Shown piece after piece: positions 5,493-62,429 of a stretch of DNA of 64,000 bases (position 1 is the first letter of the stretch; every line of letters begins with the position of its first letter). The notes under the pieces are model-generated. The model saw nothing but the letters and a program-made list of their open reading frames with translations. It had not been told where the DNA came from and did not search any database. A program made the position numbers and the translations under genes. Source of the stretch: a virus; the IMG/VR virus record IMGVR_UViG_3300049440_000308, positions 62,309-126,308 of that record. One strand, given 5' to 3'.

Positions 5493-7153
5493 CCGGCTGC
5501 GCTACCTGCTGGAACTGCAGCGGCGCGCGGCGAGGATCAAACCGGGGGTCGCCCGCTACTACCATGACCCGCTGGCGTTCGCCGCCGACTGCATCGACTG
5601 GCGCGGTACTGACGGGCTGACCGGCTACCAGGAGGACATCATCGGGGGCCTGCCGCAGCGTAAGCGCACTGCGGTCCGCGGCCCCCATGGATTAAGGACT
5701 AGGCAAATCGGCTATCTCCGCGGTGACGGTCCTGTGGTTCGCGCTGACCAGGGACGCCGCCGGGGTCGACTGGAAGGTCGCGACGACCGCCGGCGGCTGG
5801 CACCAACTGACACAGTACTTGTGGCCGGAGATCCACAAGTGGTCCGGGCGACTGCGCTGGGACAAGGTCCGCGACGGCCGGCCGTTCACCCGGTCCGAGC
5901 TGCAGAACCTGAACCTGCGGCTCGCCCACGGGCATGCCTTCGCGGGGGCATCCGCTAACGCCGCCCTGATCGAGGGCGCGCACGCCGACTCGCTGCTGTT
6001 CGTGTTCGACGAGTCCAAGGCGATCCCCGCGGGCACCTTCGACGCCTGCGAGGGCGCGTTCTCCGGCGCCGGGGAGGGCGGTACCGAGGCGTTCGCCCTG
6101 GCCCTGTCGACCCCGGGGGCACCGCAGGGCCGCTTCTACGACATCCAGTCACGCCGCCCCGGTTACGAGGACTGGCACCCTGTCCACGTTACCCTCGCCG
6201 CCGCCATGGCCGCCGGGCGGATCACCGCCGAGTGGGCACGGCAGCGCCTGCGGCAGTGGGGCGAGCAGTCAGCGATCTACCAGAACCGTGTCCTCGGGGA
6301 GTTCCACGCCGAGGACGAGGATGCGGTCATCCCCCTCGCCTGGGCGGAGGCCGCAGTGGAACGCTGGCACCAGTGGGAGGCCGCGGGCAAGCCCGACACG
6401 GGCAGGCCTCGTACCGTCGGCGTGGACGTCGCCCGGTTCGGCGGAGACAAGACGGTCCTCGCGGTCCGCAACGGCCCGGTGATCACCGAACTGCGCCGGT
6501 ACACCAAGGAAGACACCATGGCCACCACCGGCCGCGTGAAGGGCATCCTGGCGGCGGACGACTCCCGCATCGCGGTGGTCGACGTGATCGGCATCGGCGC
6601 CGGGGTGGTCGACCGGCTCCGCGAGCAGCACGCCCGCGTCGTGGCGTTCAACGCCTCCCGTGGCTCCAAGGCCCGTGACAGCACGAGGGAGATGGGCTTC
6701 TACAACCGCAGGAGCGAAGCCTGGTGGACGCTCCGGGAAGCCCTCGACCCGTCCGCCGGCCCTGACATCTGCCTGCCCGATGACGAGATGCTCCTCGGTG
6801 ACCTGTCCACCCCTAAGTGGGAGGTCCGTTCCGGAGGCAAGATCCTGGTGGAAAGCACCGATGACATCCGGGAGCGCATCGGCCGTTCCCCCGACGACGG
6901 AACCGCGGTCGTGCAGGCGTTCGTCCCGCATCTCGGCGACGCCTCGCCGGCCACCGTCCGCCAGTGGGCCGGCGCTGCCGGCCTGGCTGACATGGGCGTG
7001 AACGAGGAAACGAAAGCGCACAGGCGGATGCGGGAGATTCAGGGGCGCGCGGCGGAGGGCCTTGAGGACGCGCCTTGGGATCTAGACGGTTTCGGCCCGC
7101 AGGACGAGGCGGAGGCGAGGCCTCGCGGCAACAACGTCAGGACATGGCGGTAG
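5464..7153 (+). CDS. terL: terminase large subunit, interrupted by a 7-nt insert in Walker A (joins 5464-5691 with 5699-7153)
   Basis: AVRGPHG / LGKS Walker A split across frames; Walker B LLFVFDE; RNase H-like nuclease motifs VGVDVARFGGDKT, DVIGIG and SPDDG. Confidence 0.9.
5689..5698 (+). other. candidate translational bypass element GGA-TTAA-GGA
   Basis: Matching GGA codons flank the rare TTA; skipping 7 nt restores GPHGLGKS. Confidence 0.7.
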
Positions 7154-11497: not shown

Positions 11498-12103
11498 GTG
11501 CCGGCGCCTAGCGCCCGTGAGGCCCTGCGGCCCGGTGACGTCCTGGTCGTCCGGACGGCCGGGCTGCCCGCGAGGCTGATCCGGGTCGGGGAGGAACTGT
11601 CCGGCAAGGTGGGGCTCGACAACCACGTCGCCTTGTTCAGCCACTGGACCGGCAGTGTCCCGTGGGGCCTGGAGGGAAAACCGGGCGGGGTCGGCTGGGC
11701 GGACCTGCGCCCCTACCTGGCCAGCCATTTCACGGTGAACAACTGCCTGCAGCCGGGCCGTGACGACGCGGGCCGGGCGGAGGTCTGCGCGCAGGCGGGG
11801 CGGATGCTGGGGACCGCCTACGACTGGGAGGCGATCGCGGATGACACGCTGCGGGCTTTTCACATGCCGGACCTGTTCGCGTCCACCTGGCACGGGGCGG
11901 TCCCCGGTCATGTTCTCTGCAGCTCCTACGTCTCGTTCTTGTACGCCCGGCAGGGGTGGGTGCGCCCGCGGGTGCCGGACCGGGACACGGAACCCGGTGA
12001 CTGGACGGCCTTCATCACAGATCACCAGTGGAGTGCGACGATAAGCGCGTTACGGCAGATTGCTGAAGAGAGCGGGGTGCCCCGTGGTAAACATCACCGA
12101 TGA
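11498..12103 (+). CDS. permuted papain-like NlpC/P60 (YiiX/YebB-type) hydrolase
   Basis: PGDVLVV, NHVAL, EG.PGGV, GTAYDW and C-terminal CSS motif order; TTA at 12050. Confidence 0.7.
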   Translation: MPAPSAREALRPGDVLVVRTAGLPARLIRVGEELSGKVGLDNHVALFSHWTGSVPWGLEGKPGGVGWADLRPYLASHFTVNNCLQPGRDDAGRAEVCAQAGRMLGTAYDWEAIADDTLRAFHMPDLFASTWHGAVPGHVLCSSYVSFLYARQGWVRPRVPDRDTEPGDWTAFITDHQWSATISALRQIAEESGVPRGKHHR

Positions 12104-27162: not shown

Positions 27163-28134
27163 GTGCCGGCGTCCCTTGACCTTGCCGCGCCGAAGCTCGG
27201 CAGCGGTGCCCGGTTCAAGAAGCTGTCCTCAACGCTCGCCGCCCGCGGTGCCAGCAACCCGGACGCCCTCGCCGCCTACATCGGCCGCAAGAAGTTCGGC
27301 GCCAAGGGCATGGGCCGCCTGTCCGCCGGCAAGTCCCTCGCGAACCCTGACCTCGGCATCTACCTGTCCGAGACAACGAAGGACAGCCAGGGCTTCACCC
27401 TCACGTGCCCCGAGTGCGGCCATGTTGCCCCCTCCGGCGACTTCGGCGCCTCCGGCACGAGCACCGACTCCAGGCCCGCCGACCTGCGTACTCCCGCCCC
27501 CAGCACAGGCGGAGTGCGTGACGGGGTGCCCCTCACCGTGAAGACCGGCGCCGCCCACGCCCTGTCCAGCACCCGCGCGGCGGTTGAGCTTGCCACCGGA
27601 ACCGTCCGCCGCCCCATCCACGGCCCCATGGACGTCCTGGTAAAGCGGGAACCGGATGGTACTGCCCTGCTGAGGCACCGCAACGGGGGAGCGGAGATCG
27701 CCCGCCTGCGCCGCACCGACGAGGGCAAGTGGGTCGCGTCCGTCAACGGCAGGGACCTCGCCCCCCGTGACCACCAGCGGACCGCCCTCATGGAAGCGGT
27801 CGGCCAGTGGAACGGGGCCGTCACCGCGGCCACCAGGCGGCAGGAAGCACCGTTGCAGCCGCCCCCGCAGCAGACGGAGCTGATGGCCGAGTACGGCATC
27901 CCCGCGATGCGCTCCGCCGGGTTCGCCACCCCCACCGCCGGGGTGGGCGACGGGCCGCGCGTGACCACCTCGGCCGCGGCGGGTGACAGTGACGGCGACA
28001 AGGACGCTCCCGGCGGGCTGAGCCCGAAGGCACTGGCGATCTACAAGAAGCTCCTCGCCAAGGGCTTCCCCGCCGCGCGGGCCCTCGCGTTCGCAAAGAA
28101 CAGCCAGAAGTTCGGCAAGCCGGCGGCCGCCTGA
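27163..28134 (+). CDS. modular head-associated protein
   Basis: SLDLAAPKLGSGARF...AAYIGRKKFG module, Zn-ribbon CPECG and C-terminal basic module. Confidence 0.75.
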   Translation: MPASLDLAAPKLGSGARFKKLSSTLAARGASNPDALAAYIGRKKFGAKGMGRLSAGKSLANPDLGIYLSETTKDSQGFTLTCPECGHVAPSGDFGASGTSTDSRPADLRTPAPSTGGVRDGVPLTVKTGAAHALSSTRAAVELATGTVRRPIHGPMDVLVKREPDGTALLRHRNGGAEIARLRRTDEGKWVASVNGRDLAPRDHQRTALMEAVGQWNGAVTAATRRQEAPLQPPPQQTELMAEYGIPAMRSAGFATPTAGVGDGPRVTTSAAAGDSDGDKDAPGGLSPKALAIYKKLLAKGFPAARALAFAKNSQKFGKPAAA

Positions 28135-30308: not shown

Positions 30309-31220
30309 ATGCCCACTGGCGCAAGAGGTTACAGCGACTCACCGCGGCTTACCGTCTCCGAGCTGCTGAAGGACCCGCTGGTCATCCCGGCCTTGATCCT
30401 GGATATCACCGCCAACGAGTTCATCATGGACAGCGTGTTGCGGATGGGCGGGGCGGCCCCGTCCGGCGCGGTCCGCTACTCGGAGAGCACCCCGCTGTAC
30501 GCGGACGACTTCCCAGAGATCCGGGCCGAGTTCGCCGAGGTGCCCGTCGTGCCGACGTCCATCGGCGTGCCCCGCGTCGTGTTCTCCCACGAGCGGGCCA
30601 TGGCGATCATGGTCAGCGACGAGATGCGGCGCCGTCAGGCCATCGATCCTGTAACCAGGCAGCTACTCCAAGTCAAAAACACGATGGTCTATAGCTGGAA
30701 TACGGCATTTTATTCGGCTGTCGTGGCCAATGCCAGTATCCAGACGCTCGCAGTAGCGAATGCGTGGGCCTCAGCTTCGGCGACGATCCGCAGCGACATC
30801 GCCCAGGCCGTGTACCTGGTCGAGAACAGCAACATCGTCAGCCCGTCCGGCGTCACCCAGTGGCTCGGCTTCGAGGCCGACACGATGATCATCAACCACG
30901 GGACGAAGAACACGCTCCTGCAGTCGAGCACGTTCGCCGCGCCCTACATCGGCGACATCGCCAGCGAGAACCTGCAGTACACGGGCGTGCTGCCGAACAA
31001 GGTGTTCAACCTTGACGTGCTGGTCTCGCGTCAGGTGCCCGCGGGCAACGCGATCATCATGCAGCGGCACCGGGCCGGCTTCTACGCCGATGAACTGCCC
31101 TTCATCGCCGGGCCGCTTTATCGGAGCGAGGAAAGAAAGGTCTGGAGGAGCGACACCCAGAGGTCATCGGCAATCGGGCTTGACCAGCCGTTGGCCGTTG
31201 CCCTCCTGAGCGGCGTCTAG
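30309..31220 (+). CDS. major capsid protein (HK97 fold)
   Basis: AGGAGG SD; RAEFAEVP, ADTMIINHG and LVSRQVPAGNAIIM; size and position. Confidence 0.85.
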   Translation: MPTGARGYSDSPRLTVSELLKDPLVIPALILDITANEFIMDSVLRMGGAAPSGAVRYSESTPLYADDFPEIRAEFAEVPVVPTSIGVPRVVFSHERAMAIMVSDEMRRRQAIDPVTRQLLQVKNTMVYSWNTAFYSAVVANASIQTLAVANAWASASATIRSDIAQAVYLVENSNIVSPSGVTQWLGFEADTMIINHGTKNTLLQSSTFAAPYIGDIASENLQYTGVLPNKVFNLDVLVSRQVPAGNAIIMQRHRAGFYADELPFIAGPLYRSEERKVWRSDTQRSSAIGLDQPLAVALLSGV

Positions 31221-32438: not shown

Positions 32439-33119
32439 ATGGAACCGTACTTCGCCGATGACCTCGTGACGTTGTTTCTCGGTGACTGCCGTGAGGTCGC
32501 CGAGTGGCTTGAAGCGGACGTGCTGGTCACCGACCCGCCGTACGGTCGCGGGTGGGGTCAGCACGGAACAGCAGTACGCCGGGGCTGGCGTGACGACTCT
32601 CATCCCGGAATCGCCAACGACACTGACACGTCTGCCCGCGACGGCGCGCTGGCGGCATGGGGCAGTGACAGGCCGGGGCTGGTGTTCGGCGACCTCCTGT
32701 CGGTGCCGCCCGGCGCAAAGCAGGCGCTCGTCTACGACAAGGGCGTGCAAGCGGCGTTTATGGGAGCGCTCGCCGGCTTCCGACGCAACGCCGAGGCTGT
32801 CTACATCATCGGGCGCGGATGGCCGACAGGACTTGGCGGCAGGTCGTGCGTCATCACCACCAGCGGCCCGGTCGGCGGCAACCTGACGCGCCGCTACGGC
32901 CACCCCCATGTCAAGCCGGTCGACGTGATGGAGACGCTGATCGCCGCGTGCCCGCCGGGCGTGATCGCCGACCCGTTCGCTGGCTCAGGGTCAACGCTGG
33001 TCGCCGCCCGGAACCTCGGGCGCCGCGCGATCGGCGTGGAGGTTGACGAGCGGTACTGCGAGCGTGCCGCTAACCGCCTGTCTCAGGGTGTCCTTGACCT
33101 TGCGGGGGCGATCGCATGA
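32439..33119 (+). CDS. DNA methyltransferase (N4/N6, beta class)
   Basis: VTDPPY, HPHVKP, DPFAGSGSTL and GVEVDERYC. Confidence 0.9.
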   Translation: MEPYFADDLVTLFLGDCREVAEWLEADVLVTDPPYGRGWGQHGTAVRRGWRDDSHPGIANDTDTSARDGALAAWGSDRPGLVFGDLLSVPPGAKQALVYDKGVQAAFMGALAGFRRNAEAVYIIGRGWPTGLGGRSCVITTSGPVGGNLTRRYGHPHVKPVDVMETLIAACPPGVIADPFAGSGSTLVAARNLGRRAIGVEVDERYCERAANRLSQGVLDLAGAIA

Positions 33120-33736
33120 CGTTCGGCCGCTACGTGCTGACCGCCAATGTCACCGTCCCCGCGGGCACCGCCGGGTTCTCCGCGGGGGGCCCGGGGGTCA
33201 CCACGACCGCGGTCACCTCCGCGGCACCTGCAGGGGGAACGACGGTCACCTCGCAGGCCGCGGGCCCCGGCTCGGTCCTCCTGTCGTGGACGGTCGCCCT
33301 GCAGACCGCCGCCGCCGCGGGCGACGTGAACAACTTCGGCCTCTACAACGGGGCGGTCCTGCTCGCCACGTCGGTGAACACGGGCACGGTCGCCAGTTTC
33401 CCGCAGGCCGCCGCCGTCACCTACCTGGAGGCCGCCGCCACGGTGGTGAGCGTCAAGAACATCGGCAACGGCACCGCCGGGAGCGTCTACTCGGCCACCC
33501 TCACCCTCACCCCGGCAACGACCGGGGGCGCCAACGGGACCGCCGGGTGGACCGGGGCGGGATCGCCCGCGGCATGGTCGGCGGGCCCGTTCCCCGTGAC
33601 GTTCCTCGCCGGGACGCCGCTGTACCTGGACACCGCCGGGGCCCTGTACGCGGCTCTCGGGGCCGCGAGCCTCCGGGCGTGGATAGACGGAACCGACGGC
33701 CAGCCCCACGGCAAGTGGGGGGCGCTGAGCAACTTA
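33116..33736 (+). CDS. beta-rich structural protein; probable functional end at ...GALSN-TTA (formal ORF runs to 34051)
   Basis: ATGA overlap; C-terminus matches the xSN*/xTN* ends of the next two genes. Confidence 0.6.
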
Positions 33737-33749
33737 TGGGAGCGATACC

Positions 33750-34379
33750 GTGATCATCCAGCCGGCAGTACCCGCGACCAGCGCGGCCGGGACCACGAAC
33801 TTTGTGGCAAATCCCACCTCGAACACCGCCTACGTGACGGTGGGCGCGAACGGCGCCACCATGGCCAACTACTGGGTGTCGGCCGTCTCCGTGGCCACGT
33901 CGGCGACCGGGTTCATGATGACGGTCCCTCCTGGCGGCACCGCGGCGCTGCAGTACACGGTCGCGACCCCCGTCTGGTACTGGAGCGAGTGCACCCCCGC
34001 CCTGCCCGCCAGCACCGTCGCAGCGGTCAACACGACCGGCCGGGACCTTGACGTGATCTTCACCGGCGGCGGGTCCGTCTCCGCGGTCACCATCAACGGG
34101 CTGACCACCAACATCACCCAGGCCCCCACCATGAACACGGGGGCCGTCCCGCTGACCTCCGGGGCCACCATCGCCGTCACCTACACCGGCACCGTCTGCT
34201 GGGCGTGGCTCGACCCGATCTGCATGGTGTCGGTGGGGCACTCCGACGCCAGCAACTACGCGGCGTCCAACACGGTCGCGCCCACCGGGGCCAACGGGTT
34301 CAGCCCCCTCAACACCCTCCCCTACGCGGTGCACGCGGCCACCGGGGCGACCGGCTTCGCGGTGGGCGTGAGCAACTAG
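33750..34379 (+). CDS. Thr/Ala-rich structural protein with an internal repeat
   Basis: GGGAG SD; two ...GxTxAxxYTxxxxxW repeats; ends GVSN*. Confidence 0.7.
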   Translation: MIIQPAVPATSAAGTTNFVANPTSNTAYVTVGANGATMANYWVSAVSVATSATGFMMTVPPGGTAALQYTVATPVWYWSECTPALPASTVAAVNTTGRDLDVIFTGGGSVSAVTINGLTTNITQAPTMNTGAVPLTSGATIAVTYTGTVCWAWLDPICMVSVGHSDASNYAASNTVAPTGANGFSPLNTLPYAVHAATGATGFAVGVSN

Positions 34380-34381
34380 CC

Positions 34382-34609
34382 ATGAGCCAGTTCCCGCAGC
34401 GGATCCTCTCCGACGTGAGCGTCACCTGGGACAAGCACGCCTCCGGCGTCCCGCTGACCACGTTCGTCCGCCGCGGGACCGTCGCCGACCTCATCCCCGG
34501 CTCTGCCCTGTCGCTGGCTTACGGGGGACCGGGGAACCTCTCCGGGGTCATCCCAGTCAGCCAGCGGGGCAACGAGCAGTGCTGCTCGAAAGCGTGCGTG
34601 ACGAATTGA
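34382..34609 (+). CDS. small hypothetical protein
   Basis: RILSDVSVTWD...RRGTVADL; ends VTN*. Confidence 0.6.
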   Translation: MSQFPQRILSDVSVTWDKHASGVPLTTFVRRGTVADLIPGSALSLAYGGPGNLSGVIPVSQRGNEQCCSKACVTN

Positions 34610-35332: not shown

Positions 35333-35532
35333 CCACGCCCATGACGCCGACATGGCCCTGTAGCCGGCCGTGCGCGAGAGCCGGCGAGACGTGCGACCGC
35401 AGCAGCCCGGACGGGACGTGCAGGCCGGCGGCCCTCCGCTTCTTCGGTGCGCACTCCCTCGGACTGTCCGTTGAGCAGTGGGATGAGCGGCTGGCTCTCC
35501 TTCGCGGAGCGGCGGGGGCGGTGACCGCATGA
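35329..35532 (+). CDS. small Cys-containing protein
   Basis: GTGA/ATGA overlaps. Confidence 0.45.
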   Translation: MTTPMTPTWPCSRPCARAGETCDRSSPDGTCRPAALRFFGAHSLGLSVEQWDERLALLRGAAGAVTA

Positions 35533-36080
35533 CGACCCCGACCGCCTCCGGGACCCTGTACGCGAGCGTCGCCGACCTCCGCAACGGCATGGGCGGCACC
35601 GACGCGGGCACCGGCACCGCCGCGCAGCTCACCGACGCGCAGCTTGAACTCGCCCTGTACTCCGCGAGCAACCGCGTGTCGGTCTTCGCGGGCAATATCT
35701 ACGACAGCTCAACTCCGCAGGCCGTGCCCCCGCCGATCCTGCACGATCTCACCCTTGACCTTGCCGCGTTCTGGGCCTGGAAGACGTATCTCAAGGGAAA
35801 GGCGATGCCGGCGGACCACCCGGTGATGATCGCCTACACCAACGCCATGCAGATGCTCGGCGACGTGCGCGACGGCAAGATCCAACTCGGCGTCAACCCG
35901 GCCCCCGGCGTCGGGGATGAGATCGGGACGGTGATAAATCGCATTCCCCCGGTGTTCACCGGCAGGGACTCGAATACCCGTATCGATGTGACCACCGGGA
36001 CGCTTGAGGCCGATTCGCCCTTTTACACGCCTCGTACCAGCGGCCTCTTCGACGGGGGGCCAGTCTATGGCGGGGGCTAG
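35529..36080 (+). CDS. head-tail adaptor (Mu gp36/DUF1320-like)
   Basis: YASVADLR...ILHDLTLDLAAFW...YTNAMQML.DVRDGKIQL. Confidence 0.75.
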   Translation: MTTPTASGTLYASVADLRNGMGGTDAGTGTAAQLTDAQLELALYSASNRVSVFAGNIYDSSTPQAVPPPILHDLTLDLAAFWAWKTYLKGKAMPADHPVMIAYTNAMQMLGDVRDGKIQLGVNPAPGVGDEIGTVINRIPPVFTGRDSNTRIDVTTGTLEADSPFYTPRTSGLFDGGPVYGGG

Positions 36081-60773: not shown

Positions 60774-60974
60774 CTACTCCGGCTGCACCGGGATGCCCGC
60801 GAGCAGCGCCCGGACTTCGGTTTCCCGGTAGCGGCGGTGGTTGCCGAGGGTGCGGATCGACGTGAGCTTCCCCGCCTTCGCCCACCGGGTGACGGTCTTC
60901 GGGTCGACGCGGAACATCGTGGCGACCTCCGCCGGGGTCAGCAGCGGCTCGGCCTCCGGGTGCCTTGTGCTCAT
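60774..60974 (-). CDS. bldC: BldC-family MerR-like HTH regulator
   Basis: EPLLTPAEVATMFRVDPKTVTRWAKAGKLTSIRTLG.HRRYRE.EVRALLAGIP matches Streptomyces BldC as I recall it. Confidence 0.9.
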   Translation of the reverse strand: MSTRHPEAEPLLTPAEVATMFRVDPKTVTRWAKAGKLTSIRTLGNHRRYRETEVRALLAGIPVQPE

Positions 60975-62244: not shown

Positions 62245-62429
62245 CAGGCGTTCCCCTCTCGCAGCGCCTTTACCTCTTCCTGCCGGTACTTCCGGTGCCT
62301 GCCCGAACCGGGGACCGGGGTGATCTTCCCTGCTTTAGCCCAGCGGGTGACCGTCTTGACGTCCACGCCGAACTCCGCGGCGACCTGCTCCTCAGTCAGC
62401 AGCGGCGCCTCCGGCGGTGATGCGGTCAT
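62244..62429 (-). CDS. BldC/excisionase-like HTH protein (diverged paralog)
   Basis: PLLTEEQVAAEFGVDVKTVTRWAKAGKI...RHRKYRQEEV; GGAGG SD. Confidence 0.8.
   Translation of the reverse strand: MTASPPEAPLLTEEQVAAEFGVDVKTVTRWAKAGKITPVPGSGRHRKYRQEEVKALREGNA

Follow-up and report, generated by a model that had tools for sequence, protein, structure and literature searches.

Introduction

In antibiotic-producing actinobacteria, decoding of UUA by the bldA tRNA is the classic case of a developmental switch that works through a codon. Slow codons in the ribosomal A site also act as pause elements of recoding sites, such as GGA-UAG in T4 gene 60, CUU-UGA in prfB and CUU-AGG in Ty1, and in the mitochondria of Thraustochytrium (NCBI table 23) and of some green algae UUA is a stop codon.

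The bldA tRNA is the sole reader of UUA in Streptomyces, and during vegetative growth it is functionally scarce (PMC10732093). Ribosome profiling revealed pausing at UUA codons, including one in the adpA leader ORF that is located at its 3′ end and 5-6 nt upstream of the main start, and the paused ribosome was proposed to delay initiation on the main ORF (Antonov et al. 2023, PMC10732093). Tagging by tmRNA at UUA in Streptomyces has been proposed, not shown (PMC2635970). In phage phiHau3 and some prophages, terminase genes carry inserts composed of UUA plus a gap, and a bypass of the insert when UUA is undecoded was proposed, as summarized in a later report (Smith et al. 2013, cited in PMC10732093). 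UUA is, in addition, a near-cognate of the stop codons UAA and UGA, and in human cells eRF1 binds UUA without terminating (bioRxiv 10.1101/2024.09.01.610654). Thus far the use of UUA by phages has been known only as the proposed trigger of a hop in terminase genes, and our literature searches gave no bacterial or phage example of TTA in place of a stop codon. Here, we analyze a gene junction of an uncultured virus at which TTA stands at the position of the stop codon, and compare it with these systems.

Results

Origin of the sequence and probable host

The sequence analyzed (the window) is a stretch of 64,000 nt, positions 62,309 to 126,308 of IMG/VR record IMGVR_UViG_3300049440_000308, which is an uncultured virus of 131 kb, judged complete, with a base composition of 71% G+C. 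No tRNA genes were found in the phage genome. The junction is located in the head gene region, between two genes that we call A and B and upstream of a third, gene C. Its surroundings, and one distant gene that bears on the host, are as follows (all positions are those of the window):

30309-31220: major capsid protein (Pfam Phage_capsid_4)
between the capsid protein gene and the DNA methylase gene: two small genes
32439-33119: DNA methylase, lying between the head genes and gene A and overlapping the gene A start (ATGA)
3′ of gene C: several small genes
35529-36080: Mu gp36-like protein, after these small genes
60774..60974, minus strand: phage-borne BldC-family regulator (NF033787, 102.6 bits against a cut-off of 77)

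Among cultured phages, the closest relatives of the capsid protein are in those that infect Mycobacterium, Gordonia, Streptomyces and further actinobacteria, Actinomycetota MAGs contain distant relatives of gene A, and the BldC-family gene is a pointer to an actinobacterial host with complex development. Because of these three lines of evidence, the host is very probably a high-GC, developmentally complex actinobacterium.

The DNA methylase gene is missing from this place in two relatives (L094 and L101), in which a gene for a 212-aa protein directly precedes gene A; this marks the methylase as a mobile gene that inserted among the head genes. Its DNA is ~72% identical to that of methylases of Mycobacterium and Gordonia phages.

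A survey of tRNA genes covered three MAGs with distant relatives; being incomplete, it was left out of the evidence. The class-II tRNAs of one 9-Mb MAG included tRNA-Leu with anticodons CAG, GAG, UAG and CAA and none with UAA, in a set that was clearly incomplete. A separate observation in a 9-Mb Actinomycetota MAG is a tRNA array with 24 genes in a span of 3 kb (L138, G006:C18:888100-891300), among them a tRNA-Leu(CAA) of unusually short length and one tRNA whose anticodon is ATA. None of the public sequencing runs holds the window stretch (best share 0.11, from contigs of relatives only), and no holder of it was listed among RNA data.

The junction between genes A and B

The junction consists of the following elements:

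33116..33733, plus strand: gene A proper, 206 codons, the last one being the invariant Asn (N206)
33734..33736, plus strand: TTA at the position where homologues have their stop (TGA, TAG or TAA)
33736..33753, plus strand: mini-ORF of five codons, ATG GGA GCG ATA CCG TGA, bridging genes A and B
33737..34051, plus strand: formal continuation of 105 codons, Arg-rich, without coding signal and not kept among relatives
33738..33742, plus strand: Shine-Dalgarno-like GGGAG of gene B, 1 nt past TTA and 7 nt ahead of GTG
33750..34379, plus strand: gene B, start GTG, 209 aa, end ..GVSN TAG
34382..34609, plus strand: gene C, 75 aa, end ..CVTN TGA

Reading of the codons bore out the layout described in a first-pass annotation of this DNA. 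The gene A frame reads G-A-L-S-N up to 33733 and then TTA at 33734-33736; the GGGAG (33738-33742) and the GTG (33750) of the next gene follow immediately; the next two genes end with GVSN TAG and CVTN TGA. The formal ORF, 33116..34051 or 311 aa, which the annotation had followed for roughly 100 further codons, extends 105 codons past the Asn and overlies gene B in another frame. Third-position GC in the gene A frame is 0.87-1.00 to about 33740 and ~0.6 thereafter, and in the gene B frame it climbs to 0.9-1.0 past about the same point. Since third-position GC switches frame near 33740, coding in the gene A frame ends at the TTA, and we judged that the 33737..34051 continuation is not a real part of the protein. 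A -1 reading into the frame ending ..LMGAIP was also considered and rejected, there being no slippery site and no conservation.

The ATG of the mini-ORF overlaps the TTA and its TGA overlaps the GTG of gene B. This relay, T[G/A/T]ATG .. [A/G]TGA, recurs in L062, L083, L002, L016, L101 and G003, and it is found also in relatives that have TGA or TAA in place of TTA. In one locus (L098) the relay's own stop is replaced as well, which creates a second TTATG at the gene B start.

Codons following the terminal Asn in gene A homologues

Database search yielded ~100 relatives of gene A, nearly all of them 202-209 aa long and ending with the same Asn (..SN, ..GN or ..AN); when 23 diverse members were aligned, this Asn was invariant. 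About a dozen entries run beyond the Asn, and the next residue is Leu in each. DNA was taken for 92 loci from viral and metagenome collections; when the region was listed without any filter, the Asn was followed only by a stop or by Leu. In 38 distinct junctions the codon was TGA (17), TAG (10), TAA (2) or TTA (9). Two extra TTA junctions, one of them in the complete relative G003, had been missed by the search pattern, which brings TTA to 11/40 and stops to 29/40. These 40 junctions were sampled regardless of their ends. Targeted look-ups, counted apart, gave TTA in nine cases out of nine (seven proteins running beyond Asn and two A-B fusion entries). No other sense codon followed the Asn in the 40 sampled junctions and the 9 targeted cases. 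The position of the TTA is thus that of a stop in 29/40 homologous junctions, which was the comparison that the first-pass annotation had suggested making. Homologues with a long tail, which it had regarded as evidence against its stop-like TTA, do formally exist, but the tail always lies behind a TTA.

The TTA is found in a variety of contexts past the Asn (TTA TGG GAG.., TTA TGT TC.., TTA TGA.., TTA GGA GG.., TTA CAG GAG.. and TTA CGA..), several of which have sister sequences with TGA, TAA or TAG instead. The base that follows TTA is T in 10 cases, G in 6 and C in 2 (n=18). An error of sequencing or assembly that turned TAA or TGA into TTA, an option named in the first-pass annotation, would need a single base, but the same TTA is present in ~20 distinct assemblies (JGI, ENA, NCBI and Logan) within different sequence contexts, and this explanation can practically be dismissed.

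On a maximum-likelihood tree of 39 gene A proteins the distribution of TTA versus stop takes 13 changes, at least 7 of which are forced by well-supported branches, and the labels are no more clustered than shuffled ones (mean 12.2). Recombination may inflate the apparent number of independent changes. On this tree a single origin of TTA at the gene A end is excluded. Thus, the turnover of TTA with TGA, TAG and TAA resembles the turnover of stops among themselves.

If UUA were read as Leu, protein A would be extended by 1 residue (TTA TGA), by 3-9 residues, by 15-120 residues of Arg-rich out-of-frame sequence, or by the whole of gene B, the latter at four junctions where gene B is in frame by chance. 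The would-be extensions, of 1 to >200 codons overall, are unrelated to each other and no conservation was detected among them. Database entries P0004, P0029, P0038, P0051, P0057, P0093, P0101 and P0102 are called as 221-427 aa for what is most likely a ~205-aa protein, because gene callers read through the TTA. Two database entries are A-B fusions (416 and 427 aa), both joined by TTA; they were judged artificial.

Features of protein A

No Pfam match was obtained for genes A, B and C. A tblastn search against cultured phages revealed no gene A homologue and, for gene B, only weak tailspike-like matches; there is, therefore, no tractable model phage. The AlphaFold model of protein A is a beta-sandwich (jelly-roll-like) with a mean pLDDT of 74, for which Foldseek returned weak matches to TNF/C1q/BclA-like jelly-rolls and one cyanophage capsid-associated chain. 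The last 15 residues are highly conserved but are modelled with low confidence. Since this conserved free tail ends in an invariant residue, it argues that the exact C-terminus of protein A matters.

Spacing downstream of TTA and the possibility of recoding

Gene B starts 11-16 nt past the TTA in 11/11 junctions (13 nt in the window), whereas the distance is <11 nt in 7/16 junctions with true stops (p=0.02, uncorrected for relatedness). This spacing is consistent with a positional role of the TTA. The distance to the next back-up stop tends to be shorter behind TTA than behind a true stop (p=0.07), suggesting that a degree of read-through does matter.

Programmed recoding would join A to B by a +1 shift at AAC-UUA or by a hop of peptidyl-tRNA-Asn to an AAC in gene B. 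In the window the +1 frame is open into gene B, and the first-pass annotation had proposed a fusion by a +1 move into the 33750 frame. This part of its interpretation was not supported by the TTA-bearing relatives: counted from gene A, gene B takes frame 0, +1 or +2, and TTA followed by G gives TAG in the +1 frame; moreover, AAC re-pairs poorly on ACU. A hop, which is independent of the relative frame of the two genes, would escape the first of these objections. The nearest AAC after the terminal one, 61 nt further on in the window, is the conserved AAC at gene B codon 16-17, and the first downstream AAC/AAT is an in-frame Asn codon of gene B in 9/11 TTA junctions; however, it is so in 7/16 stop junctions too, a difference that is not significant (p=0.11), and the candidate landing Asn is not invariant in gene B. 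TTA also occurs where other genes follow gene A (L009, L049 and L057) or gene B, gene B has a ribosome-binding site and a start of its own in all cases, and the fused ORFs in databases are all joined by TTA. The putative TTA-triggered hop elsewhere in this phage, described below, speaks in favour of recoding. On balance, we regard recoding of A into B as improbable.

Two classes of known recoding sites can be compared with the junction. As at T4 gene 60, prfB and Ty1, a rare sense codon and a stop are interchangeable as slow A-site codons. There, pausing promotes a frameshift or hop, and the downstream frame that is entered is conserved; the end of gene A has no such continuation and, in contrast to +1 sites of the prfB/Ty1 type, it combines poor re-pairing of AAC on ACU with the lack of a fixed gene B frame. 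The other class is represented in the phage itself:

5692..5698, plus strand: TTAAGGA insert in the terminase gene (GGA-TTAA-GGA), from frames read

Skipping these 7 nt restores the Walker A loop (GPHG-LGKS) which, judging from the reading frames, shows that the phage relies on UUA not being decoded normally at this site. The features of the phiHau3 type (gap, take-off and landing sites, conserved flanks) are all present at 5692 and are not found at the gene A end. The two situations are alike in that they concern late genes of actinophages with an undecoded UUA as the presumed trigger. In the phiHau3 terminase, however, UUA is inside the ORF and coding resumes after a gap of 7-10 nt, while gene A needs no resumption. 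What sets the gene A site apart from a phiHau3-type bypass is that in every homologue the UUA comes after the end of the complete protein.

TTA at the end of gene B and of other genes

The end of gene B was tallied with a pattern that left the next codon unconditioned. In 39 distinct junctions it was TGA (22), TAG (8) or TTA (9), and no other codon was seen. All nine TTA ends read aacTTATG, the ATG of the next gene overlapping the TTA. There was no link between TTA at the gene A end and at the gene B end (2, 9, 7, 16; p=0.68), and 18/34 operons have TTA at one of the two ends or at both. At the gene B/C junction of G002, L007, L012, L013, L015, L062, L083 and L150 the sequence is ..AAC TGA GCC AG.. 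and gene C is without ATG; its sole in-frame start is a CTG that overlaps AAC TGA (aaCTGAgcc), which suggests a CTG start or some other coupling.

Other genes end in the same way. The small gene two beyond gene B (before a gene for a 117-aa protein) ends with TTATG in L094 and L097, and an A-like gene of 80-kb relatives (L029) ends with N-TTA. In an 82-kb relative (G004, L123-L127) a 584-aa gene on the minus strand, at position 28097, ends ..RRDWR TTA g ATG; the next gene is read in the +1 frame, with a formal overhang of 31 codons, so that an unrelated gene has an architecture like that of genes A and B. Two further cases are located in the window:

12050..12052, plus strand: in-frame TTA near a gene end (..TISA TTA), then 16 low-GC3 codons
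51836..51838, plus strand: TTA at the stop position of a 762-aa gene, where the G003 and G001 homologues stop exactly

The next gene has its ribosome-binding site and GTG within the 16 low-GC3 codons after the first TTA. A back-up TAA lies 6 codons past the second.

TTA is the rarest codon in the phage: of the 38,609 codons called, 2 are TTA. Genes were also called, with self-training, in four complete relatives that share 86-95% capsid protein identity with the window. Within called genes of the five related genomes (~175,000 codons) there are 10 in-frame TTAs, 6 of them in the last 20 codons and 9 in the last 31. For CTA, used as a control, 42/331 (~13%) fall in the last 20 codons; the binomial p for the TTA excess is 0.0006. 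In cellular Actinomycetota, UUA is enriched at the 5′ end of genes instead (PMC13072593). Apparent internal TTAs in G001 turned out to be in antisense frames or to be reverse complements of TAA stops; the weak internal candidates left in G001 are at 113601, 114174 and 126728.

The pooled ends of genes A and B give TTA in 29/88 by a rough count in which targeted cases are included. TTA occupies about a quarter to a third of the ends of these two genes versus ~1% of all gene ends, and at the gene A end it exceeds TAA (9 versus 2 of 38), though TAA makes up 7% of stops genome-wide. Therefore, TTA is favoured at the gene A and gene B junctions rather than just tolerated, and its recurrence at the gene A end is far beyond chance.

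These counts bear on plain stop loss, according to which a G-to-T change in TGA or an A-to-T change in TAA created a TTA that is read as Leu, with the resulting junk tail, of 105 residues in the window, tolerated or trimmed. A single change does turn TGA or TAA into TTA, and mutations from G to T are common in genomes of high GC content. The modelled flexibility of the C-terminal 15 residues of protein A and the nearer back-up stops of TTA cases would agree with a tolerated tail. Yet other one-step neighbours of stops (TGG, CGA, TCA, TAT, CAG etc.) account for 0/88 gene A and gene B junctions, and the preponderance of TTA over TAA is the opposite of what is expected, as the commoner transition leads to TAA. 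Neither the invariance of the terminal Asn nor tails that range from 1 to >200 residues and include whole-gene fusions fit a tail that is merely put up with. We consider plain stop loss rather unlikely.

A true code change, in which UUA lost its tRNA in the host lineage and came to be recognized as a termination signal, would make it a fourth stop codon. It would account for the interchange of TTA with the three stops on the gene A tree and for the finding of 0 in-frame TTA inside confidently called conserved genes in ~175,000 codons, and mitochondria with NCBI table 23 show that UUA can mean stop. As in that code, TTA is absent from conserved interiors and present at the stops of relatives; in organelles, however, the codon ends many genes. 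In the phages it ends ~1% of genes, fewer than TAA (7%), and is concentrated in few junctions, which argues that in most genes TTA does not have the value of a stop. A further hint, of leakiness, comes from the nearer back-up stops. A code change is thus doubtful.

Discussion

We favour the reading, with a probability of roughly 0.55, that the actinobacterial host hardly decodes UUA and that the codon serves as a pseudo-terminator or pause where one cistron meets the next, protein A being the 206-residue form. The pseudo-terminator or stall that the first-pass annotation had put forward as one outcome fits the comparative evidence: TTA occupies the stop position, it is the sole alternative to stops, and the tails behind it are not conserved.

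In such a scheme UUA would probably be read only by a scarce bldA-type tRNA in the high-GC host. Scarcity of the UUA-reading tRNA is assumed here from the actinobacterial precedent and the BldC gene of the phage. A ribosome finishing protein A would meet UUA with an empty A site and pause with the chain on tRNA-Asn, and the finished chain would be let go without addition of Leu. We infer that release could proceed through a slow near-cognate release factor, through drop-off followed by peptidyl-tRNA hydrolysis, or through ribosome rescue. While paused, the ribosome would cover the ribosome-binding site of gene B, whose start is 13 nt downstream, and in this way the TTA could hold back or time gene B translation according to the capacity of the host to decode UUA. 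A stall would normally lead to tmRNA tagging and degradation, an outcome that does not sit easily with a structural gene. The strong enrichment of TTA at genes A and B is not accounted for by a role of UUA as a stop surrogate.

Among the described systems, the adpA upstream ORF is similar in having a rare UUA at the end of an upstream frame, near the next start and a G-rich ribosome-binding site. In adpA, however, the upstream frame is a short leader, a real stop that overlaps the main start follows two codons after UUA, and UUA, usually followed by G, is 5-6 nt from the start. At the phage junction the upstream ORF is not a leader peptide but a full-length structural gene, UUA replaces the stop, the next start is 11-16 nt away or overlaps in TTATG, and there is often no nearby stop. 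Control of the bldA type is similar in that UUA is by far the rarest codon of the phage genome. It differs in that the UUA of bldA-regulated genes is located inside the coding sequence near the 5′ end, while the phage TTA is at the stop position. We conclude that use of UUA as a stop substitute and pause at head-region cistron junctions in a clade of uncultured high-GC soil actinophages is most likely a new variant of UUA-based translational control.

A more radical possibility, which we view as an unlikely one, is that a lineage of soil Actinomycetota, together with its phages, has UUA as a genuine fourth termination signal, either by a sense-to-stop change or by a route that is free of release factors. 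In the latter, the invariant C-terminal Asn of A and B may cleave its own peptidyl-tRNA ester via a succinimide during the wait at UUA. If true, this would be the first such case outside organelles, and current gene calls of these phages would have wrong protein ends.

With UUA as a stop surrogate and pause, the reading that we favour, gene callers would likewise mis-annotate such genes as long overlapping or fused ORFs. UUA standing in for stops would add a new decoding outcome, termination-like release or a pause at the junction, to those known for this codon, and would bear on what ribosomes do at hungry or unassigned codons.
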